Source: Clostridiales bacterium
GTDB taxonomy: Bacteria > Bacillota > Clostridia > Oscillospirales > CAG-272
Assembly: GCA_012837425.1 (NCBI GenBank)
Contig: DURE01000040.1
Span: 15,099 to 79,098, forward strand
Length of the DNA: 64,000 bases
Direction of reading: 5' to 3'
Position 1 is the first letter of the stretch, and every line of letters starts with the position of its first letter. The translations under genes were made by a program, and so were the position numbers. Positions 454-61,983 of the stretch are shown here, one piece after another. The notes beneath the pieces are model-generated. The model was not told the DNA's origin. It was given only the letters and a program-made list of their open reading frames with translations, and searched no databases.

Positions 454-1920
454 ATGAGAGAAACCAAACAAAAAGAACAAACGCAAAAAAACACAGCTCC
501 GGGTCTGGCCCCGATCATGCTGCGTTTTACCGAACTTGGCCCGGACAACATTGAGGAATACCGGAAACTGAGCCGGCACTGCCCCTATCTTCTGTCCTGT
601 TATTCCGCTGGGGTATTGTTCATGTGGAAAAGCTATTATAGCGCGGCATATGCCCTTTATTCGGGCTGCGTGATTATCAGGCTGACAATAAACAACAAAG
701 TGTGCTTTTTGTACCCCTTCGCCTACACAGACGGCGGCGATGTAAAAGAGGCGCTTGCCGCCATTGAGAAATACACCTCAAAAAACAGCATCCCCTACTC
801 ATTTTATGCGGTGCCTCGCGACGAGCTGCCGCGCCTTGCGCTGCGCTATACAAATATGTCTTTTTCGGTGAATCGGAACGAAAGCGAGTATATTTATGCC
901 GCCGGGGACATGAAAAGCTTTGCCGGCAGGAAATACTCGGGCCGGCGCAATCAGGTCAGAAGGTTTAAAAAACGATATCCCGATGCTGTTTTGCGTGAGT
1001 ATGATCAACCTGCCGACCACCGGAGGCTACAGCGCTTTTGGGAGAGGTTTGAGGACGGATTTAAAGCCGACGCACCGCTGGCGCTGGTTGAGCTGGAAAA
1101 ATCAAAGGAAGTATTTGCAAACCCTCATATTTACGGGGGACATTTTGCCTGCGTCGAGGAAGACGGGGAGATTGTCGCCCTCTGCTATGGCGAGATAGTT
1201 GGGGACATGCTGATAATACACATTGAAAAAGCGCTTGTCAGCTATGAGGGCGCATATCAGTTTATGTTCAGCGGCTTTGTAAACAAATATGGCGCGGGGT
1301 GCAGATATGTCAACCGCGAGGACGACGTCGGCAGCCCCGGCCTACGCAAATCCAAGCTGCAGTATCATCCGATAAAAATCGAGGAATATATCTCGGTTGA
1401 CGTGAACACCGAGCTGACAAGGCTAAGTGAGCCGCCAAAAATCGAAACCGAGCGGCTTGTGCTCGACCTGATAAGCGAGCGGGATGAAGAGGCCTACAAC
1501 CGGCTCTGTCTTGACGAGCAGCACAACAGGTATTGGGGCTACGATTACCGGGAGCAGGTTACCGGCACCCCGCCGCGCGACTATTTCTGGCGCGATGCCA
1601 TTGCTGATTATGAAAACAAGGTGAGCCTGACGCTGGCCATAAGGCGCGGGGGCGAGTTTATCGGCGAGGTGGTGATAAACGAATTTGACTATCGCGGCAG
1701 CGCAAACCTCGGTGTCCGCATTCTGCCTGAGTACACGGGCAGGGGCTACGGGCGCGAGGCGCTCTCGGCGGCGGCCGAATACGCCCTCTATAAAATAGGG
1801 CTTGACTCCGTCACAGCCTACTGCTACAAGGGAAACACAGCCTCATACCGCCTGCTGTCTTCCTGCATGAAGCTGGAGGGTGAGGATGAGAAGTTTTATT
1901 ATTTCCAAAGAAAGGCATAG
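454..1920 (+). CDS. Fusion protein: DUF2156 (MprF C-terminal/FemX-like) domain plus C-terminal RimJ/RimL-type GNAT N-acetyltransferase
   Basis: 488-aa ORF. The N-terminal ~300 aa (LFMWKSYY, NRNESEYIYAAGDMKSFAGRKYSGRRNQVRRFKKRYP) fit the DUF2156 pattern. The C-terminal ~165 aa (ETERLVLDLISERD...IGEVVINEFD...LGVRILPEYTGRGYGREAL) fit the GNAT pattern. The start is uncertain: ATG 454 or ATG 517, neither with a strong RBS. Confidence 0.6.
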   Translation: MRETKQKEQTQKNTAPGLAPIMLRFTELGPDNIEEYRKLSRHCPYLLSCYSAGVLFMWKSYYSAAYALYSGCVIIRLTINNKVCFLYPFAYTDGGDVKEALAAIEKYTSKNSIPYSFYAVPRDELPRLALRYTNMSFSVNRNESEYIYAAGDMKSFAGRKYSGRRNQVRRFKKRYPDAVLREYDQPADHRRLQRFWERFEDGFKADAPLALVELEKSKEVFANPHIYGGHFACVEEDGEIVALCYGEIVGDMLIIHIEKALVSYEGAYQFMFSGFVNKYGAGCRYVNREDDVGSPGLRKSKLQYHPIKIEEYISVDVNTELTRLSEPPKIETERLVLDLISERDEEAYNRLCLDEQHNRYWGYDYREQVTGTPPRDYFWRDAIADYENKVSLTLAIRRGGEFIGEVVINEFDYRGSANLGVRILPEYTGRGYGREALSAAAEYALYKIGLDSVTAYCYKGNTASYRLLSSCMKLEGEDEKFYYFQRKA

Positions 1921-2017: not shown

Positions 2018-2046
2018 TTGACAAAGTATCCAAATGATTGTATCAT
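2018..2046 (+). promoter_or_regulatory. Sigma-A type promoter for the surface-protein gene
   Basis: TTGACA (2018-2023), 17-nt spacer, TATCAT (2041-2046). It lies inside the N-terminal extension of the tracked ORF, so that extension is not coding. Confidence 0.55.
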
Positions 2047-2071
2047 TAGAATATCATATAATTTGGGAGGA

Positions 2072-3151
2072 ATGATGAGCATGAAAAAAGCCGCATCAAT
2101 TGTTCTGCTCGCCACCATGATTATTACGGTGTTTGTCCTTACCATCCCCGTGACGGGTATCGCGGGTATGAACCCTGTTCCGACCGATATTACCGACCAG
2201 ATTAAGTGGTCTACGGTGTATGAAGTCTATTCAATGAAGCTCCCGGTTGTAAGGCTGGACGCGGTTTTTGTCCACGCTCAGGACTATGACATGGCGCTGG
2301 CGAAGGCAGCTCCGGGCAACGGCAACAGAACCGTGACATTTACCGACTGGAATCTTCCGTATTTCTTCGACGACCCCTTCAACCTCGGCGAAGGTGTTTT
2401 CTATTACGATAACGTAAAGTGGCAGAACCCGGCCAATAAGGAAGACGTCAACGACCACGGCACGCTTACATATGATATCGAGGTCAAAGAGGCTGGGACG
2501 TATGAATTTGTAGTGCTCGGGTGCGCTCAGATAACCGAGGCCAATCTTGATGTTGATGCCAAGGACCGCGGCTTCTGCTACAGCATCGACGGCGGACCGA
2601 TGTACCAGGTGAATATTTCGGATACGCTCGGGGTCTTCAGGGAGTATGCGTACACCTATTCAAGCGCCGAGCTCAAGGGAGGAGAACTCCAAACCACAAA
2701 CGGAGTGAATTCAACGTTTTACCAGCCGGTGTACTATTACAACATGTTCGCCGAGCTTACTGCCGGGAAGCATAAATTTGAGTTCCATGCACTGGCCTAC
2801 AGCGGCGACACCTTCACCCCGGCAAACTCCTCGCGTCTCAACTTTATGGGTTTCTATTACCAGAAGGCCATATCCGAGGTCGAATGGCTGGCCTACACAC
2901 ATCCGGAAGTGACAACTCCCGAAACTCCCGCAACCACAAAGTCGCCAGATACTACGAAATCACCTGATACCACAAAAACACCCGGAACCACAGAGGCGCC
3001 GGGCACCACAAAGGCTCCGGCCGAAACCACCACAGGGGCTGCGACCACTAAAGAGGAGACCGGAGGGGGCGGCTGCAAATCTGCCATAGGACCCGGAATG
3101 CTCGCCTTCATTCTTCCCGCCGCAGCAGTAATAAAAAAGAAAAAGCGTTGA
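2072..3151 (+). CDS. Secreted CBM-like surface protein with Thr/Pro-rich stalk and Cys-containing C-terminal anchor (GGGGC + TM helix + KKKKR)
   Basis: RBS GGGAGG at 2065-2070, followed by in-frame ATGs at 2072, 2075 and 2081. Sec signal MKKAASIVLLATMIITVFVLTIPVTGIAG. Beta-rich body with a CBM-like pattern (GTYEFVVLG..., AGKHKFEFHALAYSGD). TTK(S/T)P(D/G) repeats at 2909-3060. Tail ETGGGGCKSAIGPGMLAFILPAAAVIKKKKR. Confidence 0.7.
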   Translation: MMSMKKAASIVLLATMIITVFVLTIPVTGIAGMNPVPTDITDQIKWSTVYEVYSMKLPVVRLDAVFVHAQDYDMALAKAAPGNGNRTVTFTDWNLPYFFDDPFNLGEGVFYYDNVKWQNPANKEDVNDHGTLTYDIEVKEAGTYEFVVLGCAQITEANLDVDAKDRGFCYSIDGGPMYQVNISDTLGVFREYAYTYSSAELKGGELQTTNGVNSTFYQPVYYYNMFAELTAGKHKFEFHALAYSGDTFTPANSSRLNFMGFYYQKAISEVEWLAYTHPEVTTPETPATTKSPDTTKSPDTTKTPGTTEAPGTTKAPAETTTGAATTKEETGGGGCKSAIGPGMLAFILPAAAVIKKKKR

Positions 3152-3179
3152 ACCCCGGCATCCGTCCGGAGTAAAGAAT

Positions 3180-3224
3180 CAAACTATTATTGCCAGCGGC
3201 CTTGCCGTTGGCAATAATAGTTTG
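3180..3224 (+). terminator. Long hairpin downstream of the surface-protein gene (possible leaky terminator/attenuator)
   Basis: Inverted repeat with 16-nt arms, CAAACTATTATTGCCA ... TGGCAATAATAGTTTG. Only a weak T tract (TTTG) follows. A second small hairpin GGCCT-gccgc-AGGCC plus TGGTTTT lies at about 3277-3297. Confidence 0.45.
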
Positions 3225-3330
3225 TCAGCGCTTTCCAACAAGCCCCCGAGGCGGGAGCTTTCGGCTTTAGTCATCCGGCCTGCCGCAGGCCTGGTTTTCG
3301 GGCAGCAGTCGGCGCAAACTAACAAAAAGG

Positions 3331-4131
3331 ATGGTCAAAACAGTGTTTCCCGACGTTATGATATTGGGGCTTTCCCTGTATGAAATTTTTCTTGTCGCCG
3401 GCGTGATTTCGGCGCTTGTGGTGTTCCGCGTGTTGTCGGACAAAACCCGGCTTGACACCCGGCTCTTCAACTTCTGCCTTATTGCCGGGGTGGTGGCTAT
3501 AATCTCAGGATACGGCTTGTCGGTGATTTTTCAGGCCTACTACAATTATGCCGCGGGCGGCGTGTTCGAGATAACCGCTACTACCGGCACCACCTTTTAC
3601 GGAGGGCTTATCGGCGGTGCGGCGGTTTTCTTGCTAATATATTTTGTGATAGGACATTTCGTGTTCCGCGACATGCTTCATATCCGCGAATTTTATCACG
3701 TCTCAGGGATTGCCGCCTGCTGTATTGCCACCGCCCACTCGCTGGGGAGACTGGGCTGCCTTATGGCCGGCTGCTGTCACGGAATTGCCTCCGACGCCTG
3801 GGGGATATACATGGCCTATCCGGGGTACAAGGTGATACCTACCCAGCTTTATGAAGCGCTCTTTCTGGCCCTTATGTCGGTCTGGCTTATCACAAGGGTG
3901 CTGAGGGGCAAAAGCTGCAATTTCCCGCTCTATATGATAGCCTACGGCATCTGGCGATTCTTCATTGAGTATTTCAGGGGAGACGAGCGCGGGGCGACCT
4001 TTGTAAGTTTTCTTTCGCCCTCACAGCTCACGGCGATTATACTAATCCTCGGCGGCCTGGTTTTTTGGTATTTTGAAGGCCGACACGCCCCGAGGGTCGG
4101 CGGCACCCCGCAGGGCGACGGACAAAAATGA
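3331..4131 (+). CDS. lgt: Prolipoprotein diacylglyceryl transferase
   Basis: 266-aa polytopic membrane protein with Lgt hallmarks: YGGLIGG, HGIASDAWGI, IPTQLYEALF, YGIWRFFIEYFRGDERG. Confidence 0.85.
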   Translation: MVKTVFPDVMILGLSLYEIFLVAGVISALVVFRVLSDKTRLDTRLFNFCLIAGVVAIISGYGLSVIFQAYYNYAAGGVFEITATTGTTFYGGLIGGAAVFLLIYFVIGHFVFRDMLHIREFYHVSGIAACCIATAHSLGRLGCLMAGCCHGIASDAWGIYMAYPGYKVIPTQLYEALFLALMSVWLITRVLRGKSCNFPLYMIAYGIWRFFIEYFRGDERGATFVSFLSPSQLTAIILILGGLVFWYFEGRHAPRVGGTPQGDGQK

Positions 4132-4937
4132 TGAAACTCAAAAAAAACCGCGTTGAGCTTGCTGCGGTTATTGTCTGTGCGCTGGCCATGCTCTTTTTTG
4201 AGCTTGCCAAAATCAGCTTTTCGGATGACGAGACAATCTCGGGCATCATAAACATGGTAATAACCCGCGCCCTGGGCTCGGCAATGTTTGCCATACTGGT
4301 TTTCAGACTGGGTTACCGGGTGACAAACCCGCTGAGGGCCCCCCTCGGCAGGTCGTTGCTCTTCATTCTCCCCTGTCTTGTGGTCGTGGTCAACAACCTG
4401 CCGATAATTGCGCTCGTCTCGGGGAATGCCTACCTGGCTTATCCCCCGGCGGCAGTCGCGCTTTTTGCACTTGAATGCCTTTTTGTCGGCATGTTTGAGG
4501 AACTGGCCTTCAGGGGCGCCTTCTTTCTGATGATTCTTGAGAGCAGGCGGGAGACCAAAAAACAGATTTTTATCTCAACGGTTGTCTCGTCGGCGGTTTT
4601 CGGCGGGGTGCACCTGCTTAATTTGTTTGCAGGCACCGGACCGGGCGCGGTGATACTGCAGATTGGGTATTCGTTCCTTATCGGGGGCATGTGCGCCGTG
4701 GTGCTGCTCAAGACCAAGAATATATGGCTTTGTGTCCTGCTTCATGCCCTGTACAATTTCTGCGGAACACTTGTGCCGACGCTCGGGGACTTCAAATCCG
4801 GCGGCCAGTGGGATCCGGCGACAATTGCCATTACCGCCGTGCTGTCGGTAGTGGTTGCGGCATATATAATACTCTCGCTTATCAGGATAAACCCGGGGGA
4901 CATAGACGACATGTTCCCCGGGAAGGCAGAGAATTGA
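4128..4937 (+). CDS. CPBP family (CAAX-type, Rce1/Abi) intramembrane glutamic endopeptidase
   Basis: All three CPBP motifs are present: EELAFRG, FGGVH, HALYNF. The protein has multiple TM helices. Its ATG overlaps the lgt stop as ATGA (4128-4131). Confidence 0.85.
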   Translation: MMKLKKNRVELAAVIVCALAMLFFELAKISFSDDETISGIINMVITRALGSAMFAILVFRLGYRVTNPLRAPLGRSLLFILPCLVVVVNNLPIIALVSGNAYLAYPPAAVALFALECLFVGMFEELAFRGAFFLMILESRRETKKQIFISTVVSSAVFGGVHLLNLFAGTGPGAVILQIGYSFLIGGMCAVVLLKTKNIWLCVLLHALYNFCGTLVPTLGDFKSGGQWDPATIAITAVLSVVVAAYIILSLIRINPGDIDDMFPGKAEN

Positions 4938-4975: not shown

Positions 4976-5935
4976 ATGTACAGGATCGGAGTTGACCTCG
5001 GAGGAACCAAAATAGCCGTCGGACTAGTCGATGAAGGCTACCGAATAGTGACAAAGGCCACCCTGCCGACCGGCGCCGAGCGGCCCGGCGAGGCGATTGT
5101 CGACGATATTGCCCGGCTCTGCAAAAAAGTATGTGCCGACGCCGGTGTGCCGGCAGGCCTGATAGAGTCGGTCGGAATTGCGTCGCCCGGCATTGCAAAT
5201 AATGCCGCCGGCCGGGTGGAGTATGCCAACAACCTGCCCTTTCGCCGCTTTCCCATTGCCCGGTTGCTGCGCGAGCGCTTAGGGGTGGAGGGGGTCTATG
5301 TTGAGAACGACGCCAACGCCGCCGCCTGGGGAGAGGCGGTTGCCGGGGCGGCCAGGGGAACCCGCAACTCGGTGATGATTACGCTGGGGACCGGTGTGGG
5401 CGGCGGTATTATAATAGACAACAGGATTTTTACCGGCTCAAACTGCGCCGGGGCCGAACTGGGGCATATTGTTATTGTCTATGACGGATACCCCTGCACT
5501 TGCGGGCGTCGGGGCTGCTGGGAGTCCTACAGCTCGGCTACCGCACTTATCAGAATGACCCGCGAGGCTATTGCCGGGTGTGAGGCGGCCGGGCGGAAAA
5601 CGCTCATGAGCGAGCTTGCCGAAAAAAACAGCAGGGTCGACGGGCGCACGGCCTTTGACGCCGCCCGGCAGGGAGACGAGCCGGCTCGCGAGGTGTACGA
5701 CAAATATATCAGCTATCTGGCCTGCGGCATTACCAGCATAGTGAACATATTCCAGCCCGAGGTTATCTCGCTGGGCGGCGGCATCTCAAACGAAGGACAA
5801 CCGCTGGTCGATGCGCTGCTGCCGCTGGTTCGGGCTGAGCAATACGGCGGCGACATCGTCACACATACCGAAATACGCATAGCACAGCTTGGCAACGACG
5901 CCGGTATAATCGGGGCTGCGGCGCTGGGGGTATAA
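4976..5935 (+). CDS. glcK: ROK family glucokinase
   Basis: MYRIGVDLGGTKIAVGLVD N-terminus, ENDANAAAWGE, and the ROK zinc motif CTCGRRGCWESY. RBS AGGAAAGGA lies upstream of ATG 4976. The tracked ORF start at 4691 is an upstream extension overlapping the CPBP gene. Confidence 0.8.
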   Translation: MYRIGVDLGGTKIAVGLVDEGYRIVTKATLPTGAERPGEAIVDDIARLCKKVCADAGVPAGLIESVGIASPGIANNAAGRVEYANNLPFRRFPIARLLRERLGVEGVYVENDANAAAWGEAVAGAARGTRNSVMITLGTGVGGGIIIDNRIFTGSNCAGAELGHIVIVYDGYPCTCGRRGCWESYSSATALIRMTREAIAGCEAAGRKTLMSELAEKNSRVDGRTAFDAARQGDEPAREVYDKYISYLACGITSIVNIFQPEVISLGGGISNEGQPLVDALLPLVRAEQYGGDIVTHTEIRIAQLGNDAGIIGAAALGV

Positions 5936-6173: not shown

Positions 6174-7376
6174 ATGCAGGACAACAACAAAAAAAGGATA
6201 TATGCCGATAATGCCGCCACAATGCCGGTGCTGCCCGAGGTTGTCGAGGCCATGCTACCGGTGTTTTATGATAATTGGGGGAACCCGTCAAGCCTGCACG
6301 AGGAGGGTCAACGCGCCGGCAGGGCGCTTGAAGCCGCCCGCACGACGGCGGCGGGGGTGCTCGGATGCCGTCCGGAGGAGCTTTATTTTACCTCCTGCGG
6401 TACCGAGTCGGACAACTGGGCAATAAAGGGTGCGGCATATGCCGCAAGAAATAAAAAGAATAAAATAATCACCAGTAAAATTGAGCATCATGCGGTGCTG
6501 AGCACCTGCGAGGCGCTTGAGAAAGACGGCTTTGAGGTCAAATACATCGGTGTCGACAAGGGCGGGCTGATTGACCTTGACGAGCTGCGCCAACAGGTCG
6601 ACGACAAAACCGCGCTTGTGGCTGTAATTATGGCAAACAACGAAATAGGAACCATTCAGCCGATTTCCGAGGTTGCCGAAATTGCTCATGGCGCCGGGGC
6701 GCTCTGTTTTACCGACGCGGTTCAGGCGGTCGGGAGCATACCGGTTGACCTCTCAAAACTGGGAGTCGATATGCTCTCGCTCTCGGGGCACAAGTTCGGA
6801 GCGCCCAAGGGTATCGGCGCACTTTATATCAAAAAGGGAGTCAGGATAAGGAATCTGCTGGAGGGCGGCGGGCATGAGAGAGGGCGGCGCAGCGGCACCG
6901 AAAACCTGCCCTATATCGTCGGACTTGCCCGCGCGCTTGAGATAGCCCGGGAACGAATGGGCGACATGAAGCGGGTTGCCGCCCTGCGCGACAGGCTTAT
7001 TGAGGGGCTGCTCGCCATACCGCACTCCTGCCTTAACGGCCATCCGACAGAGAGGCTGCCCGGAAACGTCAATGTTTCCTTTGAGTATGTCGAGGGCGAG
7101 GGCATGGTGCTCTGGCTCGACAAAATGGGCATCTCGGCCTCCACCGGTTCGGCCTGCTCGTCAAAATCGCTCGACCCGTCGCACGTGCTGCTCGCCATAG
7201 GGCTTCCGGTGGAGCTGGCCCACGGCTCGCTGAGGTTTTCGCTCTCACACGCAAACACCGAGGAGGATATAGAATACATCATCGCCGCAACCCGCGAGGT
7301 GGTGGAAAAGCTCAGGAAAATGAGCCCTATATATCCGGGGTATGAGGCAATACCCCCGATTCCTACAGAAAGGTAA
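6174..7376 (+). CDS. nifS: Cysteine desulfurase NifS (class V aminotransferase)
   Basis: IYADNAATMP, PLP-lysine motif SGHKFGAPKGIGALY, active-site loop STGSACSS. RBS GGAG precedes ATG 6174. Confidence 0.85.
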   Translation: MQDNNKKRIYADNAATMPVLPEVVEAMLPVFYDNWGNPSSLHEEGQRAGRALEAARTTAAGVLGCRPEELYFTSCGTESDNWAIKGAAYAARNKKNKIITSKIEHHAVLSTCEALEKDGFEVKYIGVDKGGLIDLDELRQQVDDKTALVAVIMANNEIGTIQPISEVAEIAHGAGALCFTDAVQAVGSIPVDLSKLGVDMLSLSGHKFGAPKGIGALYIKKGVRIRNLLEGGGHERGRRSGTENLPYIVGLARALEIARERMGDMKRVAALRDRLIEGLLAIPHSCLNGHPTERLPGNVNVSFEYVEGEGMVLWLDKMGISASTGSACSSKSLDPSHVLLAIGLPVELAHGSLRFSLSHANTEEDIEYIIAATREVVEKLRKMSPIYPGYEAIPPIPTER

Positions 7377-7386
7377 GGACAGGACA

Positions 7387-7827
7387 ATGGTTTACAGTGA
7401 AAAAGTAATGGACCACTTTATGAACCCGCGCAATGTCGGCGAGATACCCGACGCAGACGGTGTCGGCATGGTAGGAAACGCAAAGTGCGGCGATATAATG
7501 CAGATGTTCATAAAAGTCAGTGACAAGGGGATTATTGAGGATGTCAAATTCAAGACCTTCGGCTGCGGCGCGGCCATAGCTACCTCGTCGATGGCGACAG
7601 AGCTGGTTAAGGGCAAAACCATTGAGGAGGCGCTCAAGCTTACAAACGCTGCGGTGGTTGAGGCACTTGAGGGGCTGCCTCCGGTGAAAATCCACTGCTC
7701 GGTGCTGGCCGAGGAGGCAATAAAGGCGGCGATTACCGACTACTACAAGCGCCGGGGTATAGAAATGAATTTTGCACCCTCAGAACATAGCTGCTGTGAA
7801 CGCGATTGCGAACGCAGGAAAAATTAG
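7387..7827 (+). CDS. nifU: Fe-S cluster assembly scaffold protein NifU/IscU-like
   Basis: MVYSEKVMDHFMNPRNVG, GNAKCGDIM, FKTFGCGAAIA and IHCS conserved Cys motifs. RBS AAGGACAGGA. The gene lies immediately after nifS. Confidence 0.85.
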   Translation: MVYSEKVMDHFMNPRNVGEIPDADGVGMVGNAKCGDIMQMFIKVSDKGIIEDVKFKTFGCGAAIATSSMATELVKGKTIEEALKLTNAAVVEALEGLPPVKIHCSVLAEEAIKAAITDYYKRRGIEMNFAPSEHSCCERDCERRKN

Positions 7828-7835
7828 TAAAACTA

Positions 7836-7861
7836 CCCGGGCGGCCTGACCGCCCGGTTTG
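7836..7861 (+). terminator. Terminator after nifU
   Basis: CCGGGCGG-cctga-CCGCCCGG hairpin followed by TTTG. Confidence 0.5.
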
Positions 7862-8285
7862 CTGTGATGTGCGGCAAAAGGCTGAAGGAGGGCAGACAAG
7901 GCTCAAATCAGGGAAAACAAACCTAATTGAAATAACAACACATATGTAGAAAATCAGCCCTTAAATTTGTACAACATATACAAAATAACACAAAAAAACA
8001 TGGTTGCGAGCGCAATTATTAAAAATCCTCTTGGGTAATTGTTTATTACCCCGCAATCACCCTTGAAAACACAGGGATAATTGTGTAAAAAATCGGCCGG
8101 AATCAGCTCTTGACAGGTCGAAAACGAAACAACAATAGTAACTTATTATTACCCAACAAAGGCGCCGGATAAACATATGTCAATATTGCACTAAAAAAAT
8201 AGCTCAAATATCCGGATGGAAAAACCGGCCACCGAACTATGCTTTACCCCCGGGAATATATAATAAATATAAGATAAAACGACGC

Positions 8286-8314
8286 TTGACAAAAAAAAAA
8301 CGGTGTGGTATCAT
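8286..8314 (+). promoter_or_regulatory. Sigma-A type promoter for the large ABC/Yip1 locus, leaving a ~375-nt leader
   Basis: TTGACA (8286-8291), 17 nt, TATCAT (8309-8314). The first gene starts at 8697. Confidence 0.5.
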
Positions 8315-8696
8315 TACTTTGTGAATTCAGGACGATAGTGTATGGTTGCGCCGCTGCGCGGGCAAATTGTGCCGGTTTGATGTGAAATATCGCTTTTGCA
8401 CGACTTTGGCACCCAAATCCGATAGTCATTTTACACAAACAAATACAGACAGAATTGTATTGTGGTAAATGAATAAAACGACCGGTACACTCAAGCCAGG
8501 TCTTGCCGGGAAACCATTATGCTTGGCGACAGAATCATTGACATTCACCGGCCAAAGGCCAACGCTGCGGCACAGGACTGCGGCTTGCCGGCTGATGGCT
8601 GTTGATTTTTGATTGCCGGTTACAGCCGGAACTCAAGCCTCTGGTGCGGCACGGTAGAGCGCATCTCAAAATCATGGCAGGAGGAAGAACCCCATT

Positions 8697-11600
8697 ATGG
8701 AAAGAACGAAATTTACAAAGCTATGCGCTTTTCTCCTCGCATTGTCATTTCTGATACCCGGTGGCATGGTAGCCGCCGCGGCAGATGACACCGATTCAAG
8801 CTCGGTGACAGACAAGACGATTGACGATGTCAGGGAGCAGCTTAGTGCGATTTCGTATGATGAGTACAGCTCAAAGTATGCCAATGTTGGCAGAGCCGAG
8901 CGCGAAATCGTCATAAACGGTGTCGACTATGACAAGGAAAACACAACTGCCGCTGTTTATGCTGATACATATGACGGCGTGGAGGCGCTTTATACGCCCG
9001 ACACCGGCACGGTTTCCTGGAAGGTATCGATACCCGAGACTGCAAAGTACAGCATGATAGTAGAGTTTTATCCCGTCGTGGCCAAGTCCACTTCGGTTCA
9101 GCGCGTGCTGAGGATAGACGGCAGGATTCCCTTTGCCGAGTCGCGCTATATCACTATTTCAAAGAACTGGAAAAACGAATACCATGAGGGCGAGATAAAG
9201 GTCGGGAAGAATGAGAATCCGGACGATTATCTCGCTGCTGCAAGTGCAGCCGGAATAACCGCCAAGGCCGAGGCCAGGGAAGACGGGACCTACATACTTT
9301 ATTCGTTCCCCGAGTACTGGACGGCCGAGTCGTCAAAGCTGGTCGACGAAAACATAATACGATACTTCAGGCTGGATATCGACCGGAACGAAATACGCAA
9401 CACTATGTACCAGCAGCCCAAGTGGTCTGCCCTTGAGATGCGGGATATTGACGGCTTTTATCCCGAAAGCTTTGAATTTGTGTTTACCGCCGGCGAGCAT
9501 CAGATTTCGCTTGAGGCGGTTAACGAGCCTTTGGCTATAAAAGCCATAAGGCTTGTGCCCCATGAGGATTTGGTTCCCTATGAGGAATACAGAAGCCGCT
9601 ATGCAAACGAGCCCTACGGCACCGACAAAATCAAGATAGAGGGTGAATATACTTCGGCGATTTCCTCTCAGACCATTTACCCGGTCGAGGACAGAGCCGG
9701 CGCTATAAACTCGCCGACCGATACTTCAAGGACGGTTCTCAACACCATAGGCGGCGATAAATGGCAGACCTCGGGGCAGTGGGTTGAATACAGCTTCCGC
9801 CCGAGCACCGACGGCATATACCGGGTTGTGTTCAGGTTCAGGCAGAACATTCTTGACGGAATCTTTACCTCACGCGCAATGTATATCTACAGCGAGGGGC
9901 TCCAGGAGGGCGAGAAGGGCTATTACAACGGCATCCCCTTCAAGGAAGCTGCCGAGCTGGTCTTTAATTACTCTACAGACTGGCAGACCGGGTCGCTTCA
10001 GTACCCGATTAAGATTGAAGACGAAGAAGGCACCCTAAAAACCGAATATCGCGACATTGAGCTCTACTTCAAGGGCGGCGTGACCTATACGGTTAGATTC
10101 CAGGTCACGCTCGGAGCCATAGGAAGAATTGTGCGTCAGCTTAACGAGTCGCTGCTCTCGATAAACAACGACTATCTCTCGATTCTGAAGCTGACCGGCG
10201 CAAACCCCGACCCCTACCGCGATTACGGTTTTTACCGCATAATGCCGGATACCATAATAGACCTCAAGGTTCAGGCGCTTGTCCTTGAGAAAATTGCCGA
10301 CGAGCTTGCCTCAACCGCAGGAGTTAAGAGTACAAACGTCGCAACCCTTACCAAAATAGTCTGGCTGCTGCTCCGTATGAACGGTTCCGAGGACCAGGTT
10401 GCGCGCAACCTCAGCAACCTGAACAGCTATCTCGGAACGCTGGGTACGCTACTCAGCAACGTCAAGACCCAGCCGCTGCAGCTTGACTACCTGATAATCC
10501 AGTCGCCCGAAGAAAAGGTTCCGAAGGCAAAGCCGAACTTCTTTGAATCCTTCGCGCATGAAATTTCCAGCTTTATTATGAGCTTCATACGCAACTATGA
10601 CCGTATGGGAGCTACAGAGGCCTCACAGAGCAAGGACGCCATCGAGGTCTGGCTGGCCACTGGACGCGACCAGGCTCAGGTGGTCCGCAACCTCATCAAC
10701 AATGACTTTACGCCGCAGTTCGGACACCCGGTCAACCTGAAGCTGATTTCGGGCGCGACGCTTTTGCCCTCAATACTTGCGGGCAGGGGGCCGGATGTAT
10801 ACATAGGCCTTGGCGAGGACAATGTTATAAACTACGCAATACGCGGAGCCCTGATGAACGTCGAGAACTATGAGGGCTTCTATGATATTGCCATAAACGA
10901 AGAAACCCGCGAGTTCAACGAGGCAGCGATGCTGGTTCTCGGCATTTCCGACGCCGACGGTAATTACCATTATTATGGGCTTCCCGAAACGCAGCACTTC
11001 CCCATGATGTTCCTGCGAACCGATATCCTGTCCGACCTGGATATAGATATTCCGAGAACTTGGGACGACCTGCTTGAAGCCGTTCCGATACTTCAGGCAA
11101 ACAACATGCAGATAGGACTCAACTCGAGTCTTTCGCCCAACTACGGTGGCTCGGTTGCCAACGCTCCGCCTCCGGATTACAGAATATTCCTCTACCAGAT
11201 GGGCGGCACGCTTTTCGCTGATGACGGCATGAGAATAAATCTCGACTCGGATTTAGCACTCAAGGCCTTTGAGAAGATGTGCAACATGTTCACCATGTAT
11301 TCTTTCCCCTACAAATACGATTTTGCCAACCGCTTCAGGACCGGTGAGATGCCGATAGGCATATCTTCGTATACCAGCACGTATAACCTGCTTGTGGTTT
11401 ATGCTACTGAAATCAAGGGACTCTGGCAGTTCGTGCCGCTGCCCGGTTTTGAAGATGAAAACGGCAACATCGACAACACCACGGTTTCCACGGTGTCGGC
11501 TATAGTCATGATTGTCGGATGTGATAACGAGGAAGGCGCATGGGAGTTCATGAAATGGCATGCCGGCGCCGATTGCCAGAGCGCGTATGCCAATGAAATG

Positions 11601-12245
11601 GTTGCGATTCTCGGAGATTCGGCAAAGCACCCGACCGCCAACATCCACGCGCTCGAGAGCCTGCCCTGGACCACCGAGGAATACAATAACGTCAGCCTCC
11701 AGTTTAACAGACTCGCGTCGATTCCCAACTATCCCGGCTCCTACATAATCACCCGTTACGTCAAATTCGCATACCTGGATGCCTACAACGACAACAAGGA
11801 CCCGGTCGAAAGAATTCAGAACTATGTTCCGATTATCAACAAGGAGATAATCAAAAAGCGGCTCGAATTTGACCTTGAAGTGCTTGAGCTCGGACAGACT
11901 CTGGCCGAGAAGAGAATAGACCAGGTGTTGTGGCTCCTTGATAAGATTGAGGCATCGCTTTCATATTCCGCTGCATACGCCGAGGCAATACACGGAGTGC
12001 GCTATGCAATTGAGAGCGAAGAGCCTGCGGCAATGATTGTGTCGGCCGAAGCCATCACAAACATACTGAATACGCTTGACCCGACTGGCTCTATTGTTGA
12101 CAATGAGATAGACGCCGTCAAGAAGGCAAAGAACTGCTTTGCTTACGATGTGTACAAATATACCGATGATTTTGCAACCCTTATCTATTACACGGCAAAA
12201 TTTACAAACGAAGCAGGTAAGGCGCTTATTTCATACATACATTAA
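8697..12245 (+). CDS. Giant extracellular solute-binding protein (ABC, CUT1-like) with N-terminal CBM-like modules
   Basis: 1182 aa. Signal peptide MERTKFTKLCAFLLALSFLIPGGMVAAAADD with an AxA-type site and no lipobox. The N-terminal half is beta-rich and CBM-like (AKYSMIVEFYPV..., GQWVEYSFRPSTDGIYRVVFRF). The C-terminal half resembles family-1 SBPs (IEVWLATGRDQAQVVRNLINNDFTPQ..., ILAGRGPDVYIGLG). Confidence 0.7.
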   Translation: MERTKFTKLCAFLLALSFLIPGGMVAAAADDTDSSSVTDKTIDDVREQLSAISYDEYSSKYANVGRAEREIVINGVDYDKENTTAAVYADTYDGVEALYTPDTGTVSWKVSIPETAKYSMIVEFYPVVAKSTSVQRVLRIDGRIPFAESRYITISKNWKNEYHEGEIKVGKNENPDDYLAAASAAGITAKAEAREDGTYILYSFPEYWTAESSKLVDENIIRYFRLDIDRNEIRNTMYQQPKWSALEMRDIDGFYPESFEFVFTAGEHQISLEAVNEPLAIKAIRLVPHEDLVPYEEYRSRYANEPYGTDKIKIEGEYTSAISSQTIYPVEDRAGAINSPTDTSRTVLNTIGGDKWQTSGQWVEYSFRPSTDGIYRVVFRFRQNILDGIFTSRAMYIYSEGLQEGEKGYYNGIPFKEAAELVFNYSTDWQTGSLQYPIKIEDEEGTLKTEYRDIELYFKGGVTYTVRFQVTLGAIGRIVRQLNESLLSINNDYLSILKLTGANPDPYRDYGFYRIMPDTIIDLKVQALVLEKIADELASTAGVKSTNVATLTKIVWLLLRMNGSEDQVARNLSNLNSYLGTLGTLLSNVKTQPLQLDYLIIQSPEEKVPKAKPNFFESFAHEISSFIMSFIRNYDRMGATEASQSKDAIEVWLATGRDQAQVVRNLINNDFTPQFGHPVNLKLISGATLLPSILAGRGPDVYIGLGEDNVINYAIRGALMNVENYEGFYDIAINEETREFNEAAMLVLGISDADGNYHYYGLPETQHFPMMFLRTDILSDLDIDIPRTWDDLLEAVPILQANNMQIGLNSSLSPNYGGSVANAPPPDYRIFLYQMGGTLFADDGMRINLDSDLALKAFEKMCNMFTMYSFPYKYDFANRFRTGEMPIGISSYTSTYNLLVVYATEIKGLWQFVPLPGFEDENGNIDNTTVSTVSAIVMIVGCDNEEGAWEFMKWHAGADCQSAYANEMVAILGDSAKHPTANIHALESLPWTTEEYNNVSLQFNRLASIPNYPGSYIITRYVKFAYLDAYNDNKDPVERIQNYVPIINKEIIKKRLEFDLEVLELGQTLAEKRIDQVLWLLDKIEASLSYSAAYAEAIHGVRYAIESEEPAAMIVSAEAITNILNTLDPTGSIVDNEIDAVKKAKNCFAYDVYKYTDDFATLIYYTAKFTNEAGKALISYIH

Positions 12246-12289
12246 TTTTTCAATGAAATCAATGAAATCTATGTAAGGAGAGAGAACAC

Positions 12290-13237
12290 ATGTCGCAGAA
12301 AACGGCTGGAGTGCGAGCTGTAGCCCGTAAGGATATGACGCGCAGGCAGTGGATATGGAAAGAGATGAAGCGCAACAAGGTGGGCTATATCATGGTTGCG
12401 CCCTACATGATTCTTTTCACGATATTCACCGTCATACCCGTGCTGTTGTCAATGGTGATAAGCTTCACCGACTTCAACATGCTGCAGTGGCCGAATTTCG
12501 TATTCCTTGACAACTATATCAACCTGTTCCTCGATGACGACATTTTTCTTATAGCCGTTAAGAACACCTTCATTTTCGCGGCTATTGTGGGGCCGGCATC
12601 CTATCTGATGTCCTTCCTTGTCGCCTGGTTCATAAACGAGCTGCCGCCGAAAATCAGGGCCGTCGTCACGCTCATATTCTATGCGCCCTCAATTTCGGGT
12701 GAGGTCTACATGATTTGGAGGACACTCTTTTCGGGCGACTCGTACGGCTGGGTCAACGCGACACTGTTGCGGCTTGACATAATAACCAAGGAGATTCAGT
12801 TCTTTGAAGATAAAGACTGGGTTATGCCACTGTGTATTGTGGTTGCACTTTGGCTTTCGCTGGGCACCACCTTCCTGGCCTTCATCGCCGGCCTGCAGGG
12901 CGTGCGGCGTGAGCTTTACGAGGCCGGGGCGGTTGACGGTATCAGAAACCGCTGGCAGGAGTTGTGGTACATAACACTGCCCGAAATGAAGCCCCAGCTC
13001 ATGTTCGGAGCTATTATGTCGATTACCAGTTCGTTCGGGTTCGGCGCGGTTGTCACCAACCTTTGCGGCTACCCGTCGGTTGACTACGCGGCGCACACTA
13101 TTATGCACCACCTTGACGACTACGGGCACTTGCGGCTTGAAATCGGATATTCTTCGACGATAGCGGTTGTGCTTTTCGCAATAATGATTGGCGCAAACCT
13201 CTTGGTTTCGAAATTAATTTCAAAGGTGGGACGGTAA
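12290..13237 (+). CDS. Sugar ABC transporter permease (MalF-like)
   Basis: 315 aa with 6 TM helices and the EAA-loop region ELYEAGAVDGIRNRWQELWYITLPEMKP. RBS AAGGAGAG. Confidence 0.85.
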   Translation: MSQKTAGVRAVARKDMTRRQWIWKEMKRNKVGYIMVAPYMILFTIFTVIPVLLSMVISFTDFNMLQWPNFVFLDNYINLFLDDDIFLIAVKNTFIFAAIVGPASYLMSFLVAWFINELPPKIRAVVTLIFYAPSISGEVYMIWRTLFSGDSYGWVNATLLRLDIITKEIQFFEDKDWVMPLCIVVALWLSLGTTFLAFIAGLQGVRRELYEAGAVDGIRNRWQELWYITLPEMKPQLMFGAIMSITSSFGFGAVVTNLCGYPSVDYAAHTIMHHLDDYGHLRLEIGYSSTIAVVLFAIMIGANLLVSKLISKVGR

Positions 13238-13238
13238 T

Positions 13239-14111
13239 ATGGCAAAGCTTAGAACAAGAAAGCATAGAGTGGTTCTCAGCCGTTCGGCCGGCGGAGACAC
13301 CGGCATTACGATACTGCTGACATTTCTTGGGGCGTTTATGCTCCTGCCGATGCTCTATGCTATAATGCAGTCGCTAAAGCCCCTGGATGAACTTTGGAGG
13401 TTCCCCCCGAGATTCTATGTCACAAAACCCACCTTAAAGAATTTCAGGGACCTGTTCGTCCTGATGAATACGGCCTGGGTACCCTTTTCAAGGTATCTGT
13501 TCAACACCATGTTCACATCGATTGTAGGCACCACTGGGCACTTGTTTATCGCCTCGATGGCCGCGTATGCCATGGCGAAAATCCCCATGCCGGGCGGCAG
13601 AGCGATGTTCAGGACGGTGCGGATGTCGCTCATGTTCCATTCGACGGTAACCGCCGTGACCAGCTTCATTATAATGAGCGCCTTCGGGTGGATAGACACA
13701 TATCTTGCAATTATCTTTCCGGCGCTGGTCTTTACGCTCGGCCTTTACCTGATGAAGCAGTTCATGGAATCAAACGTTACTGATTCGGTGCTTGAGAGCG
13801 CCCGGATAGACGGCGCCTCGGAGTTCAGAATCTTCTGGGTCATTGCAATGCCGATGGTAAAACCCGCTTGGTTGACGCTTATCATCTACTGCTTCGAGAG
13901 GCTCTGGAACGCAGGGGTTTCGATTTATATACATTCAGAGCAGCTCAAATCCTTCAACTACGCTATTCACCAGATAATGGCGGGCGGAATCAAGCGTGCA
14001 GGAGCCGCCGCCGCCGCTACTGTTGTTATGATGGTTGTGCCTATTTCGGTGTTCGTTATTACGCAGTCGAACATCATTGAGACAATGGGCTCCAGCGGAA
14101 TGAAAGACTAA
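13239..14111 (+). CDS. Carbohydrate ABC transporter permease (MalG-like)
   Basis: 290 aa with the EAA loop SVLESARIDGASEFRIFWVIAMPMVKP. It starts immediately after the preceding permease gene. Confidence 0.85.
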   Translation: MAKLRTRKHRVVLSRSAGGDTGITILLTFLGAFMLLPMLYAIMQSLKPLDELWRFPPRFYVTKPTLKNFRDLFVLMNTAWVPFSRYLFNTMFTSIVGTTGHLFIASMAAYAMAKIPMPGGRAMFRTVRMSLMFHSTVTAVTSFIIMSAFGWIDTYLAIIFPALVFTLGLYLMKQFMESNVTDSVLESARIDGASEFRIFWVIAMPMVKPAWLTLIIYCFERLWNAGVSIYIHSEQLKSFNYAIHQIMAGGIKRAGAAAAATVVMMVVPISVFVITQSNIIETMGSSGMKD

Positions 14112-14128
14112 AGGGGGAGGTGAGAAAA

Positions 14129-16267
14129 ATGAAGAAAGCTGCCTCGATTCTGTGCCTTTTGTTTGTGCTTATCCTGCTCTTTTCAATTCCGATAAGCGCG
14201 GCAAAGCCCTATCAGACCTATACCTACAGCGCAGACCCCCCGAAGATGACCTACGCGCAGTATTCGCCCGACGCCTATACGCCGCTGATGACGGTTGACT
14301 CAACCTATATGGGGCTTGACGAGGCCATTTCCGACCCGCGGGATATTTTTGTCGACGACAGGATGAACGTATACATCGCCGACGCAAAGAACAACCGGAT
14401 AGTTGTGCTTGACCGCTACTACAAGCTAAAGTTCATTATCAAGGAGTTCATCAACGAATTCGGCATTGAAGACGAGTTCACGGCGCCTTCGGGCGTGTTT
14501 GTCACCAAGGATACCATCTATGTCTGCGACACCGATGCCAACCGGATTGTCACCTTTGACCGTGACGGCAATTACAAGAAGATAATCCCGCAGCCCGAGA
14601 GCAACCTGTTTGAAAACGATGCGGTCTACAAGCCTATAGCCGTCGCCGTCGACCAGTACGACAGAATCTATGTCGTTTCCTCGACCACATACGAGGGCAT
14701 TCTTGTCATGACATCGGACGGCGAGATGACCGGCTTTATAGGCGCTCAGGCGGTCACCATTTCAAAATGGGAGATTCTGTGGATGAGATTCCAGACCGCC
14801 GAGCAGAGGGCCCTGACCGCCTCCTTCATACCCACCGAGTTCAACAATATCACCATTACCCAGGATGGCTTCATCTACGCTACTATCGCGTCGATAGAGG
14901 ATTCTCAGGTCAGCAGCTTTATAAACGGCGGGAGCAGCAAATACTCGCCGGTTAAAATGCTCAACGCCGCCGGCGATGAAATTATGAGGCGGAACGGCTT
15001 TCAGGCGCCGGCCGGTGAAATCAGATTTGACAGAATGAACATGGAATCTATCACCGGACCCTCCAAACTGGTTGACGTTGCGGTGGGACCCGAGAAGACC
15101 TGGTCGATAATCGATGAAAAAAGAAGCAAGATATTCACCTATGACTTTGACGGCAACCTCCTTTTCGCCTTCGGAAACGACGGCTCGCAGCTCGGAAATA
15201 TCAAGACCATAAGGGCCGTTGCATATCAGGGCGACGCGCTCCTGGTGCTTGACAGCAACTTTAACAGCTTTACGGTCTTTGAGAGGACCGAGTACGGCAA
15301 TATCCTGATTCGTGCACTGGCCGATGAAAACGCGCGCCGCTACAGCAAGGCGGTTGAGGGCTGGACCGAGATACTTAAGCGAAACATCAACTTCGACACC
15401 GCCTATATCGGTATCGGCAAAGCGCTCTACAGGAGCGGCGAGTACGATAAGGCTATGGCCTACTACAGGGCGGCCTATGACACCACAAACTACTCGGAGG
15501 CCTACAAGGAGGTCCGCAAGGCCTGGATTTCCAGGTTCGTGCTGCTCATACCGGTAATTATTATCGTCATTGTTGTGGCATGTACCAAATTCATGCAGTA
15601 TGCGTCCAAGGTCAACAGGCGCGCGGCAACCGCCGGGGGCAAACGCACCTTCAAGGAGGAGCTGCTCTACGCTTTCCATGTAATCTTTCATCCCTTTGAT
15701 GGCTACTGGGACTTAAAGTATGAAAAACGTGGCTCAATGCGCGCGGCCGTGGTGATAATTCTGGCTACCATAATGACATATTACTATGACTCTATAGGCT
15801 CAGGCTATATAGTAAACCAATACGGCTTTTACAATTCGATAATGTCGGTTGCAATCAACAGCGTGCTGGCGCCTCTGTTCCTGTTTGCAACCGCGAACTG
15901 GTGCCTTACAACCCTGTTTGACGGCGAGGGAAGTTTCAAGAATGTTGTAGTAGCAATCTCATATGCACTTATCCCGTTGATTCTCACTCAGATTCCGGTC
16001 ACAATCATGTCGAACTTGGTGACAGTCGAGGAGGTAAACATCCTGAATCTGGTTACGACTATAGGAGTTATCTGGACCGGCATTTTGGTGTTCCTCGGCA
16101 TGATGGTAACCCACGATTATTCACTTTTCAAAGGCGTCACAACAACCATCGGAACGATTATCGGCATGGTGTTTATAATGTTCTTCGGAATATTGTTTGC
16201 GACCCTCCTTGGAAAGCTTGTGAGCTTCGTCACCAACATCGTCCTTGAAATCGGTTACCGAATATGA
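14129..16267 (+). CDS. Signal peptide + NHL-repeat beta-propeller + TPR + C-terminal Yip1-type polytopic membrane domain protein
   Basis: RBS GGGGGAGG, then ATG 14129. NHL-like repeats: RDIFVDDRMNVYIADAKNNRIVVLD, PSGVFVTKDTIYVCDTDANRIVTFD, PIAVAVDQYDRIYVVS. TPR-like segment GKALYRSGEYDKAMAYYRAAYD. About five C-terminal TM helices resemble Yip1 family proteins. Confidence 0.65.
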   Translation: MKKAASILCLLFVLILLFSIPISAAKPYQTYTYSADPPKMTYAQYSPDAYTPLMTVDSTYMGLDEAISDPRDIFVDDRMNVYIADAKNNRIVVLDRYYKLKFIIKEFINEFGIEDEFTAPSGVFVTKDTIYVCDTDANRIVTFDRDGNYKKIIPQPESNLFENDAVYKPIAVAVDQYDRIYVVSSTTYEGILVMTSDGEMTGFIGAQAVTISKWEILWMRFQTAEQRALTASFIPTEFNNITITQDGFIYATIASIEDSQVSSFINGGSSKYSPVKMLNAAGDEIMRRNGFQAPAGEIRFDRMNMESITGPSKLVDVAVGPEKTWSIIDEKRSKIFTYDFDGNLLFAFGNDGSQLGNIKTIRAVAYQGDALLVLDSNFNSFTVFERTEYGNILIRALADENARRYSKAVEGWTEILKRNINFDTAYIGIGKALYRSGEYDKAMAYYRAAYDTTNYSEAYKEVRKAWISRFVLLIPVIIIVIVVACTKFMQYASKVNRRAATAGGKRTFKEELLYAFHVIFHPFDGYWDLKYEKRGSMRAAVVIILATIMTYYYDSIGSGYIVNQYGFYNSIMSVAINSVLAPLFLFATANWCLTTLFDGEGSFKNVVVAISYALIPLILTQIPVTIMSNLVTVEEVNILNLVTTIGVIWTGILVFLGMMVTHDYSLFKGVTTTIGTIIGMVFIMFFGILFATLLGKLVSFVTNIVLEIGYRI

Positions 16268-61385: not shown

Positions 61386-61947
61386 CTTCTGTTTTAGGTG
61401 GTTTTCCGGCGCGCGCTGTACCGGTTGTTGCTTCTGGAGCGTCACGGGTTGTTCCGGCTGCTGCTTTTTCGGCTTTGGCTTCGGCAATGGTTGAGGTTAT
61501 CAGATATAAGGCCAGCAGTCCCGCGCCTGTTGTTATACATGCGTCGGCTACATTGAATACCCAGACCCATATGCTCGGGAAGGCGTGGAAATCTATAAAG
61601 TCTATCACATAGCCGAGCAGCACGCGGTCTATCATGTTGCCAATTCCGCCGCCGACAAGCAGCACGAGCGAGAGGCTCAGCAGCCGGCTCCCGGGCTTTT
61701 TGACAAACAGAAACCAGATCATTCCCGAAATGGCAACCGCAGATATTGAGATGAAAATCCAGCGGTGTTCCGAGAGCATCCCGAAGGCGGCACCGGTGTT
61801 CTCGACATAGGTGAACCTGAGGACCCCGTTTATTACCGGCAAGCCGCTCTCGGGCAGATAGGTGATAATAAGCCATTTGGTGAGCTGGTCGAGATATATT
61901 ATCGCGGCTATTACGGCTATTTTCAGCAGCATTGAGAACCTCGCCAT
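61351..61947 (-). CDS. lspA: Signal peptidase II (lipoprotein signal peptidase) with ~45-aa C-terminal tail
   Basis: DQLTKWLI, VENTGAAFG, GGIGNMIDR and FNVAD motifs. Tail AEAKAEKAAAGTTRDAPEATTGTARAGKPPKTEDENSEADSSPR. Confidence 0.85.
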   Translation of the reverse strand: MARFSMLLKIAVIAAIIYLDQLTKWLIITYLPESGLPVINGVLRFTYVENTGAAFGMLSEHRWIFISISAVAISGMIWFLFVKKPGSRLLSLSLVLLVGGGIGNMIDRVLLGYVIDFIDFHAFPSIWVWVFNVADACITTGAGLLALYLITSTIAEAKAEKAAAGTTRDAPEATTGTARAGKPPKTEDENSEADSSPR

Positions 61948-61983
61948 GACAACACGCCGGGTGGGCCCCGGCTGTGTCGTTTT

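Follow-up and report, generated by a model that had tools for sequence, protein, structure and literature searches.

Among the C-terminal sorting systems described so far, that of the MYXO-CTERM proteins of Myxococcus xanthus relies on a tripartite signal with an invariant Cys in a Gly-rich, GCGC-like motif, which is cleaved in a Cys-dependent manner, also in E. coli, by MrtX, a protease of the CPBP/Rce1 family (PMC11980579). In the published model the Cys is lipidated by an unidentified enzyme before the CPBP protease cuts (PMC11980579; bioRxiv 10.1101/2023.06.07.544157); the modifying protein of Cys-type signals is unknown (bioRxiv 10.1101/2023.06.07.544157), and Lgt is the leading candidate for the lipidation (PMC11980579). 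Here we describe a locus in a 64,000-nt stretch of DNA from a Clostridiales bacterium (contig DURE01000040.1, positions 15,099–79,098 of the forward strand; hereafter the window, whose numbering is used for all its positions), in which the gene of a secreted surface protein with a Cys-containing C-terminal tail is followed by an overlapping gene pair, lgt and a CPBP-family intramembrane protease gene. The organization of related loci (each designated L followed by a number) indicates that the three genes probably constitute a dedicated C-terminal sorting module of uncultured gut and digester Clostridia, with the transferase encoded in the cassette. More tentatively, and with slightly less than even confidence, we propose that the Lgt paralog and the CPBP protein form a two-enzyme C-terminal lipoprotein pathway in Clostridia, in which a Cys before the helix mirrors the lipobox.

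The locus shares with the MYXO-CTERM/MrtX system the tripartite signal (the Cys here standing in a GCGS-like motif), a protease of the same family and a model of lipidation followed by cleavage (PMC11980579). MrtX systems occur in diderm hosts, depend on the type II secretion system (T2SS), have Arg-rich tails and show no genetic linkage to the lipid transferase, whereas the Clostridial tails are Lys-rich, the CPBP protein fails the Mrt_core model and an Lgt paralog is translationally coupled to it. The closest tail model is that of the Synerg-CTERM/MrtS system of Synergistota (TIGR04564, NF040589), where a Ser/Gly cluster ends in a single invariant Cys, no spacer precedes the helix, Pro is often present in the helix and the predicted protease is again a CPBP protein; this system differs in its host phylum, its association with a divergent T2SS and the lack of any reported lgt linkage, and MrtS is matched weakly by 6 of 38 members of the CPBP subfamily analyzed here. 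On the Synerg-CTERM model the window tail scores 17.8 to 23.6 bits, depending on the flank supplied (cut-off 22.5), one relative scores 26 bits and 6 of 53 tails reach E < 0.01; the MYXO-CTERM, CGP-CTERM and Firmicu-CTERM models gave no tail matches. The JDVT-CTERM/MrtJ cassette likewise encodes a substrate with a Cys-containing C-terminal signal beside a CPBP protease, and the MrtJ model is touched by 37 of the 38 CPBP members, but the cassette serves one substrate only, with a DP motif and a Leu-rich helix, occurs in Proteobacteria and contains no lgt, and the window CPBP protein scores 22.7 bits on MrtJ against a cut-off of 75.

In the canonical Lgt-then-LspA pathway, too, an Lgt-family enzyme acts on a Cys that lies at the outer end of a helix next to a small −1 residue (G/S), and a membrane protease then removes the helix. 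The Clostridial topology, however, is mirrored, with the Cys preceding a C-terminal helix, and position −3 lacks the hydrophobic residue of a lipobox; a CPBP protein takes the place of the aspartyl peptidase LspA, and the transferase, which falls short of TIGR00544, has no GRxGNFxNxE signature. CaaX processing (prenyltransferase, then Rce1/MmRce1) resembles the proposed pathway in that a C-terminal Cys is lipidated first and an Rce1-family enzyme cuts immediately after it, but there a prenyl group is attached to cytosolic substrates and only three residues are cut off, in contrast to the exported substrates, the probable diacylglyceryl lipid and the loss of about 25 residues, helix included, that we predict for Clostridia. 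PGF-CTERM proteins, processed by archaeosortase ArtA, also have the C-terminal helix of a surface protein replaced by a lipid anchor; that enzyme is archaeal, belongs to an unrelated family with a Cys protease mechanism and acts on a signal without Cys. The Clostridial locus is thus a putative variant of myxosortase-type sorting with its own tail class, an unmodeled CPBP subfamily and a coupled Lgt, a combination unique so far. No NCBIfam model currently describes this protease, Lgt paralog or tail, and the literature yielded no report of lgt linked to such a sorting system, nor of the system in Clostridia; as far as we found, the locus is the first direct genomic link of the Lgt and CPBP families.

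The features of the three genes are:

2081–3151, + strand: tail-bearing secreted surface protein, beginning with a Sec-type signal peptide (MKKAASIVLLATMIITVFVLTIPVTGIAG) and with a body that matches no Pfam family or PDB sequence.

2903–3067, + strand: Thr/Pro/Lys-rich low-complexity stalk with imperfect TTK(S/T)P(D/G) repeats.

3068–3082, + strand: signature motif G-G-C-K-S (Cys codon 3074–3076), the proposed lipidation site, with proposed cleavage directly after the Cys.

3083–3133, + strand: single hydrophobic transmembrane helix of the tail (AIGPGMLAFILPAAAVI).

3134–3148, + strand: basic cluster KKKKR, cytoplasmic in the predicted topology, followed by the stop codon at 3149–3151.

3331–4131, + strand: Cys-type Lgt paralog (Pfam LGT), with a second possible start, GTG, at 3343; it is the candidate diacylglyceryl transferase for the tail Cys.

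4128–4937, + strand: CPBP/Rce1-like glutamic-type intramembrane protease (Pfam Rce1-like), proposed to remove the tail.

The surface protein probably starts at the ATG at 2081, which is preceded at 10 nt by GGGAGG and from which gene callers give a product of 356 amino acids (aa); other in-frame starts lie at 2072, three codons upstream, and at 2075. An earlier note on this DNA had placed the open reading frame (ORF) at 2072–3151, of which the end, the tail and the Cys codon stand, with 2081 the likelier start on the GGGAGG spacing and the gene callers. The protein ends in ETGGGGC-KSAIGPGMLAFILPAAAVI-KKKKR at 3151, and its stalk contains an 18-nt tandem repeat of 2.8 copies (2933–2982). The body had been called similar to a carbohydrate-binding module (CBM), a description left unsupported by searches that returned no Pfam match and no PDB sequence match. 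An exhaustive search of 1.84 billion representatives recovered 54 relatives of the protein, and G-C-[G/K]-[S/G/A] is retained in all 11 full-length relatives with an intact C-terminus, down to 34% identity; the same search matched many otherwise unrelated proteins through the linker and tail alone.

The lgt stop and the CPBP start overlap as ATGA at 4128–4131. This overlap, the coordinates of both genes and the CPBP motifs EELAFRG, FGGVH and HALYNF had been given in the earlier note and were all confirmed in the sequence; the adjacency of the two genes, for which a check beyond this strain had been suggested, turned out to be conserved. In a first scan of one genome per species, 11 CPBP relatives were found, nine of them with an adjacent lgt homolog; at L010 the order of the pair is reversed with the overlap kept, at L011 the pair is divergently transcribed, and in both the genes remain adjacent. 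A profile scan found the CPBP subfamily encoded in 327 species genomes, and the counts of pairs and tail genes given below refer to the best 80 loci of these genomes, which come from different species, all of them uncultured Clostridia of gut, rumen or digesters. In 77 of the 80 (46–85% CPBP identity) the CPBP gene is immediately preceded by an lgt homolog, mostly with overlapping reading frames; one of the remaining three loci ends at a contig edge and two are truly without an adjacent lgt. The ROK, NifS and NifU genes that follow the pair in the window are kept in only 10 of the 80 loci, which indicates that the pair moves as a unit; this housekeeping synteny had also been tried as an argument for a sole lgt and was set aside as uninformative. 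An apparent Lgt-CPBP fusion at L065 proved to be an artefact of a run of N between two genes and was not used as evidence.

The tail is not peculiar to one protein. When the 80 loci were read for ORFs with a minimum length of 200 aa and a C-terminus composed of [G/S]-C-xx, 13–26 uncharged residues and a K/R cluster, 44 tail ORFs were found, 32 of which lie within 400 nt of the pair, an interval that makes up 5.8% of the sequence (binomial P = 3e-30). Counted per 10 kb, tail genes number 5.5 inside this 400-nt distance and 0.03–0.18 farther away, an enrichment of about 30-fold; in L074, L091 and L064 the pair is flanked by three to four different tail proteins each, and of the 68 loci whose upstream sequence is long enough, 27 have a tail gene in the orientation of lgt that ends fewer than 400 nt before it. 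The tail proteins fall into nine non-homologous body clusters of 337 to 2145 aa, seven of which have pair-adjacent members, so the association is not one inherited synteny block. Signal peptides were found in 43 of the 44, and helix-tail ORFs adjacent to the pair all carry the Cys, those without it occurring only elsewhere. The window itself encodes a single helix-plus-basic C-terminal tail, directly beside the pair, and further unrelated tail-bearing proteins are present in the global protein library. The comparison, for which the earlier note had proposed a search of relatives' proteins, supports a tail that behaves as a sorting domain common to at least nine unrelated families of predicted secreted proteins and concentrated at the pair.

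Position counts were made on 73 non-redundant tails. The residue before the Cys (−1) is G in 70 tails and S in three, although the regular expression used had pre-selected [GSAT]-C, so that the Cys and the residue class at −1 are not independent evidence. At +1 the counts are 45 G, 15 K and five A, and at +2 they are 55 S and 13 G; in all 73 the basic cluster stands 19–24 residues from the Cys, Pro occurs inside the helix in 24, the terminal K/R cluster has 3–6 residues in nearly all, and acidic/Thr/Pro linkers like the stalk of the window protein precede the Cys. Neither the window tail nor any of the 73 has an LPXTG-type motif before the helix, the motif there being G-C-[G/K]-S, and weak Rumino_NPXTG matches to the tails span the helix only. 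A strict DNA pattern of the window tail, which matched three orthologous loci and gave five chance matches, had suggested a one-off tail, an idea overturned by the looser G-C tail class in the 80 loci. A protein word-index search with the tail alignment gave four candidates and no matches. The bodies are mostly unannotated, apart from one CHAP domain, one GLUG motif and a CBM30 match below the cut-off.

Individual tail proteins offer some further detail. The CHAP (peptidoglycan hydrolase) domain belongs to a pair-adjacent protein (L065, 5496–7028, − strand) and suggests that some candidate substrates of the system may act on the cell wall. In L080 the gene that precedes lgt, a homolog of the window surface-protein gene, is broken into two ORFs of 155 and 104 aa (8009–9109), likely a frameshift or a pseudogene, and a second, intact tail protein is encoded just upstream of it (6800–7885). 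An N-terminus resembling a lipobox, such as MKKIVSLALCVIMIMSIAC, is present in four of the 44 tail proteins (L030, 2049–3719; L034, 6221–7987; L041, 347–2050; L081, 5315–8011); these might carry a lipid anchor at each end, or the likeness might be a coincidence of the hydrophobic core.

A hydrophobic helix followed by basic residues may also be read as a plain type I stop-transfer anchor that is never processed, the Cys being incidental or engaged in a disulfide and the gene pair an unrelated housekeeping neighbor. Cys-less helix-plus-KKKK C-termini do exist in related proteins (P0253, P0271, P0294 and L081, 12023–15928), about 60% of the pair loci have no adjacent tail gene, and in the window hairpins separate the genes (below). 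Against such an anchor stand the G-C at the helix start across nine unrelated families and in every pair-adjacent helix-tail ORF, the clustering of tail genes at the pair to the extent given above, and the presence in L080 and L083 of a canonical Lgt in addition to the coupled paralog (below), and we consider it very unlikely.

The Lgt encoded in the pair matches Pfam PF01790 at 97.8 bits (gathering score 24.9) and fails the NCBIfam equivalog TIGR00544, with 71.1 bits against a cut-off of 118.9. In the place of the signature G-R-x-G-N-F-x-N-x-E-x-x-G it has GRLGCLMAGCCHG, with Cys at the positions of E. coli N146 and E151. Across 130 Lgt relatives the motif H..GRxGCxxAGCC[H/Y]G is invariant, as are the equivalents of E. 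coli Y26, R143, G154, Y235, R239, and E243 (Y17, R140, G151, Y205, R209, and E213), and the AlphaFold2 (AF2) model of the coupled Lgt (pLDDT 88) matches only E. coli Lgt 5AZB (TM-score 0.67, E = 6e-7). N146C and E151C occur in “distantly related” Lgts, and H103 is replaced by Tyr in Firmicutes Lgts, so that this change is not unusual (PMC13251419).

The missing equivalents of N146 and E151, which are required or important in E. coli (PMC13251419), raise the question of whether the CPBP protein sorts alone, with the Cys unmodified or modified by the canonical Lgt or another enzyme and the coupled Lgt-like protein serving as an inactive scaffold or receptor. MSMEG_5408, with N146C, is presumed to be of low activity (PMC13251419), and MrtX processed its substrate in E. 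coli, which has housekeeping Lgt only (PMC11980579). We nevertheless judge sorting by the CPBP protein alone to be unlikely: the 130 relatives keep the six residues named above, as well as three Cys and one His, without variation, which points to a conserved active site, a Leptospira Lgt with N146C is partly functional in that it gives partial complementation of E. coli (PMC13251419), and translational coupling of Lgt and CPBP across many species suggests two enzymes acting together.

Two different species, represented by L080 and L083, encode a canonical Lgt on the same contig, about 7.7 kb downstream of the coupled one. The canonical copies (339 aa, GRWGNFFNGE) score 190.6 and 185.7 bits on TIGR00544 and the coupled Cys-type copies 71–73 bits, and the two kinds share 29% identity; the coupled Lgt is therefore a second, divergent paralog in these genomes. 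This bears out the earlier note's suggestion to look for a second lgt, although none lies within the 64-kb window. Two lgt copies were recorded in about 1,300 of about 13,000 genomes in a 2026 survey (PMC13251419). The Cys-type Lgt motif was also tried as a marker of the system and rejected: a DNA-pattern scan found it in more than 120 genomes of many phyla, most of the 120 loci read have no adjacent CPBP gene, and it is thus not a marker of this function. These homologs (L106–L225; examples are L165, 3651–5149, and L215, 5708–7215) belong to Acidobacteriota, Bacteroidota, Desulfobacterota, Bdellovibrionota, Elusimicrobiota, Mycoplasmatota and other Clostridia, with two Cys-type copies in tandem at two Elusimicrobiota loci, and may be either the sole Lgt or a specialized paralog. 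The complete Mycoplasmatota genome CP134495.1 also encodes, at L106 (6711–7958, − strand) and about 5 kb from the Cys-type Lgt, a protein of 415 aa with the C-terminus GCGAASASIAGIGLLGIILFFVKRRDWI; this protein could be a chance match or a hint of similar tails outside Clostridia.

The CPBP protein scores 60 bits on Pfam PF02517 (cut-off 22.4), and its EELAFRG, FGGVH and HALYNF supply motif 1 (EExxxR), motif 2 (FxxxH) and motif 3 (HxxxN/D). In the 38 CPBP relatives E124, E125, R129, F158, H162, and H206 are invariant and position 210 is N or D, which fits a predicted active enzyme. The NCBIfam models touched by these members are MrtJ (37), an ABC-permease/CPBP fusion (35), Mrt_core (29), MrtS (6), MrtP (5) and MrtC (5), with every score far under its cut-off, and the window protein scores 16.5 bits on Mrt_core (NF040914; cut-off 100); by these scores the subfamily resembles the sorting proteases while being a member of no curated family. 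Structural similarity to MmRce1 was looked for with a confident AF2 model of the CPBP protein (pLDDT 91.9), for which Foldseek gave no significant PDB match, and a phmmer search with the protein found no match among PDB sequences.

Because the CPBP family has bacteriocin-immunity and peptide-processing members, and MroQ is a weak match, the protein might instead act as an Abi-type or CAAX-type immunity or peptide-processing protein, with lgt a coincidental partner. This is extremely improbable, since no bacteriocin or peptide-precursor genes were found in the neighborhoods, the constant partner is lgt and the commonest neighbors are large secreted Cys-tail proteins. A different precedent is LnsB, a CPBP protein of staphylococcal lipoprotein maturation through N-acylation (PMC7387801; PMC13559823), the CPBP motifs of which are dispensable (PMC13559823). 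By analogy, the pair could act on N-terminal lipobox proteins, with the CPBP protein as a non-proteolytic partner or chaperone and the neighboring tail proteins not among its substrates; the window does encode canonical lipoproteins and LspA, and the four tail proteins with a lipobox-like N-terminus would also suit this function. We hold an N-terminal role to be quite unlikely, given that 40 of the 44 pair-neighboring tail proteins have no N-terminal lipobox ([LVI][ASTVI][GAS]C), that the catalytic motifs of the pair's CPBP are invariant whereas those of LnsB are degenerate and dispensable, that no NCBIfam lipoprotein-maturation model other than Lgt was matched and that the enrichment of G-C tails at the pair would be left unexplained. 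The constant neighbor of the CPBP gene is lgt and not an NlpC/P60 gene, although no search aimed at LnsA homologs was made.

Of the sorting module proposed at the outset, the anatomy and the genetic linkage are seen directly in the sequences, while the topology, the identity of the lipid, the cleavage site and the order of steps are inferred. The substrate would be exported via Sec by its N-terminal signal peptide and stay anchored through its C-terminal helix, the K/R cluster facing the cytoplasm, a topology that would put the G-C-[G/K]-S motif at the outer interface of the membrane. The Cys-type Lgt paralog would then move a lipid, most likely diacylglyceryl from phosphatidylglycerol, onto the thiol of the tail Cys, a step suggested by its family membership, its retained Arg and Tyr and the genetic coupling. 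The coupled CPBP protein would, like Rce1 in CaaX processing, cleave directly behind the Cys once this carries the lipid and so free the helix and basic cluster, as its invariant catalytic motifs and the MrtX precedent suggest. The mature protein would thus stay on the cell surface through a C-terminal S-lipidated Cys at the end of a long Thr/Pro stalk, and a separate canonical Lgt together with LspA would serve ordinary N-terminal lipoproteins. The earlier note had read the locus in the same way, with Lgt lipidating the tail Cys and the CPBP protein removing the helix and KKKKR, and comparative genomics, in silico only, supports that reading, each of the note's computational checks that was run having favored it.

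Several findings weigh against this module. Its source genomes are all uncultured metagenome-assembled genomes, a tail gene lies directly upstream of lgt in only about 40% of loci, and the strict DNA pattern of the window tail was found once per genome in three species genomes only. The second lgt was seen in two of about 90 sampled genomes, those in which chance placed it within 10 kb, and most of the 120 Cys-type Lgt loci read are without an adjacent CPBP gene. The CPBP protein and all 38 relatives fall below every curated Mrt cut-off, a Foldseek search of the CPBP model against the PDB gave no significant match, and some CPBP proteins, for example LnsB, act without proteolysis (PMC13559823). 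Lastly, two hairpins stand in the window between the substrate gene and lgt, in a spacer of 179 nt; the surface gene is therefore at most a candidate for co-transcription with the lgt-CPBP pair. The hairpins and a site upstream of the surface gene are:

3180–3224, + strand: strong hairpin with a 21-bp stem; the 191-nt region folds at −80.7 kcal/mol (z = −3.7).

3277–3291, + strand: second, terminator-like hairpin, GGCCTGCCGCAGGCC followed by TGGTTTTCGG.

2018–2046, + strand: promoter-like site TTGACA-17-TATCAT with 11/12 consensus matches, a consensus match alone and no proof of function.

The earlier description of these hairpins as weak does not hold for the first, given its stem and the z-score of its region; the promoter-like site upstream of the surface-protein gene is an addition to that description.

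If the module does work as proposed, Lgt-family enzymes would be the long-sought lipid transferase of myxosortase-type signals in general, and the widespread Cys-type Lgt paralogs of other phyla might do the same job. Cysteine-type sorting would be extended to Clostridia, which are abundant in gut and rumen communities, and a second, mirror-image route to bacterial lipoproteins would be added. The system merits experimental follow-up because it offers a compact three-gene cassette with which Lgt lipidation of C-terminal signals can be tested in a heterologous host.

The canonical lipoprotein pathway is represented elsewhere in the window (~61351–63960, − strand) by lspA, with NTGAAFG and FNVAD motifs, directly downstream of a large ORF (61984–63960) that is taken as ileS from the classic ileS-lspA arrangement. 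Two proteins have lipobox signal peptides, …LLSISAC|SGSG and …VASLASC|NQTG (53108–54406 and 27273–29453, both + strand). Together with lspA they indicate that the canonical pathway is in use in this organism, and their presence means that canonical Lgt activity must exist in this genome. At 8697–14111 (+ strand) lies the gene of a very large extracellular solute-binding protein (1182 aa), with two ABC permease genes after it; its signal peptide lacks a lipobox, which is unusual, since solute-binding proteins of Firmicutes are normally lipoproteins.

Downstream of the pair, the ROK kinase and NifU genes of the window are single ORFs (4977–5935 and 7387–7827), whereas in L012, a 99%-identical ENA contig, each is split into two ORFs (11634–12589 and 14041–14480); the splits are probably assembly or sequencing frameshifts of the metagenome contig. 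Just upstream of the surface protein, the product of 454–1920 (+ strand) has GNAT acetyltransferase domains together with the C-terminal domain of lysyl-phosphatidylglycerol synthase (PF09924), which places a phosphatidylglycerol-related enzyme near a transferase that uses phosphatidylglycerol; the gene is kept in only two of the 80 related loci, and its placement there is thus probably coincidental.

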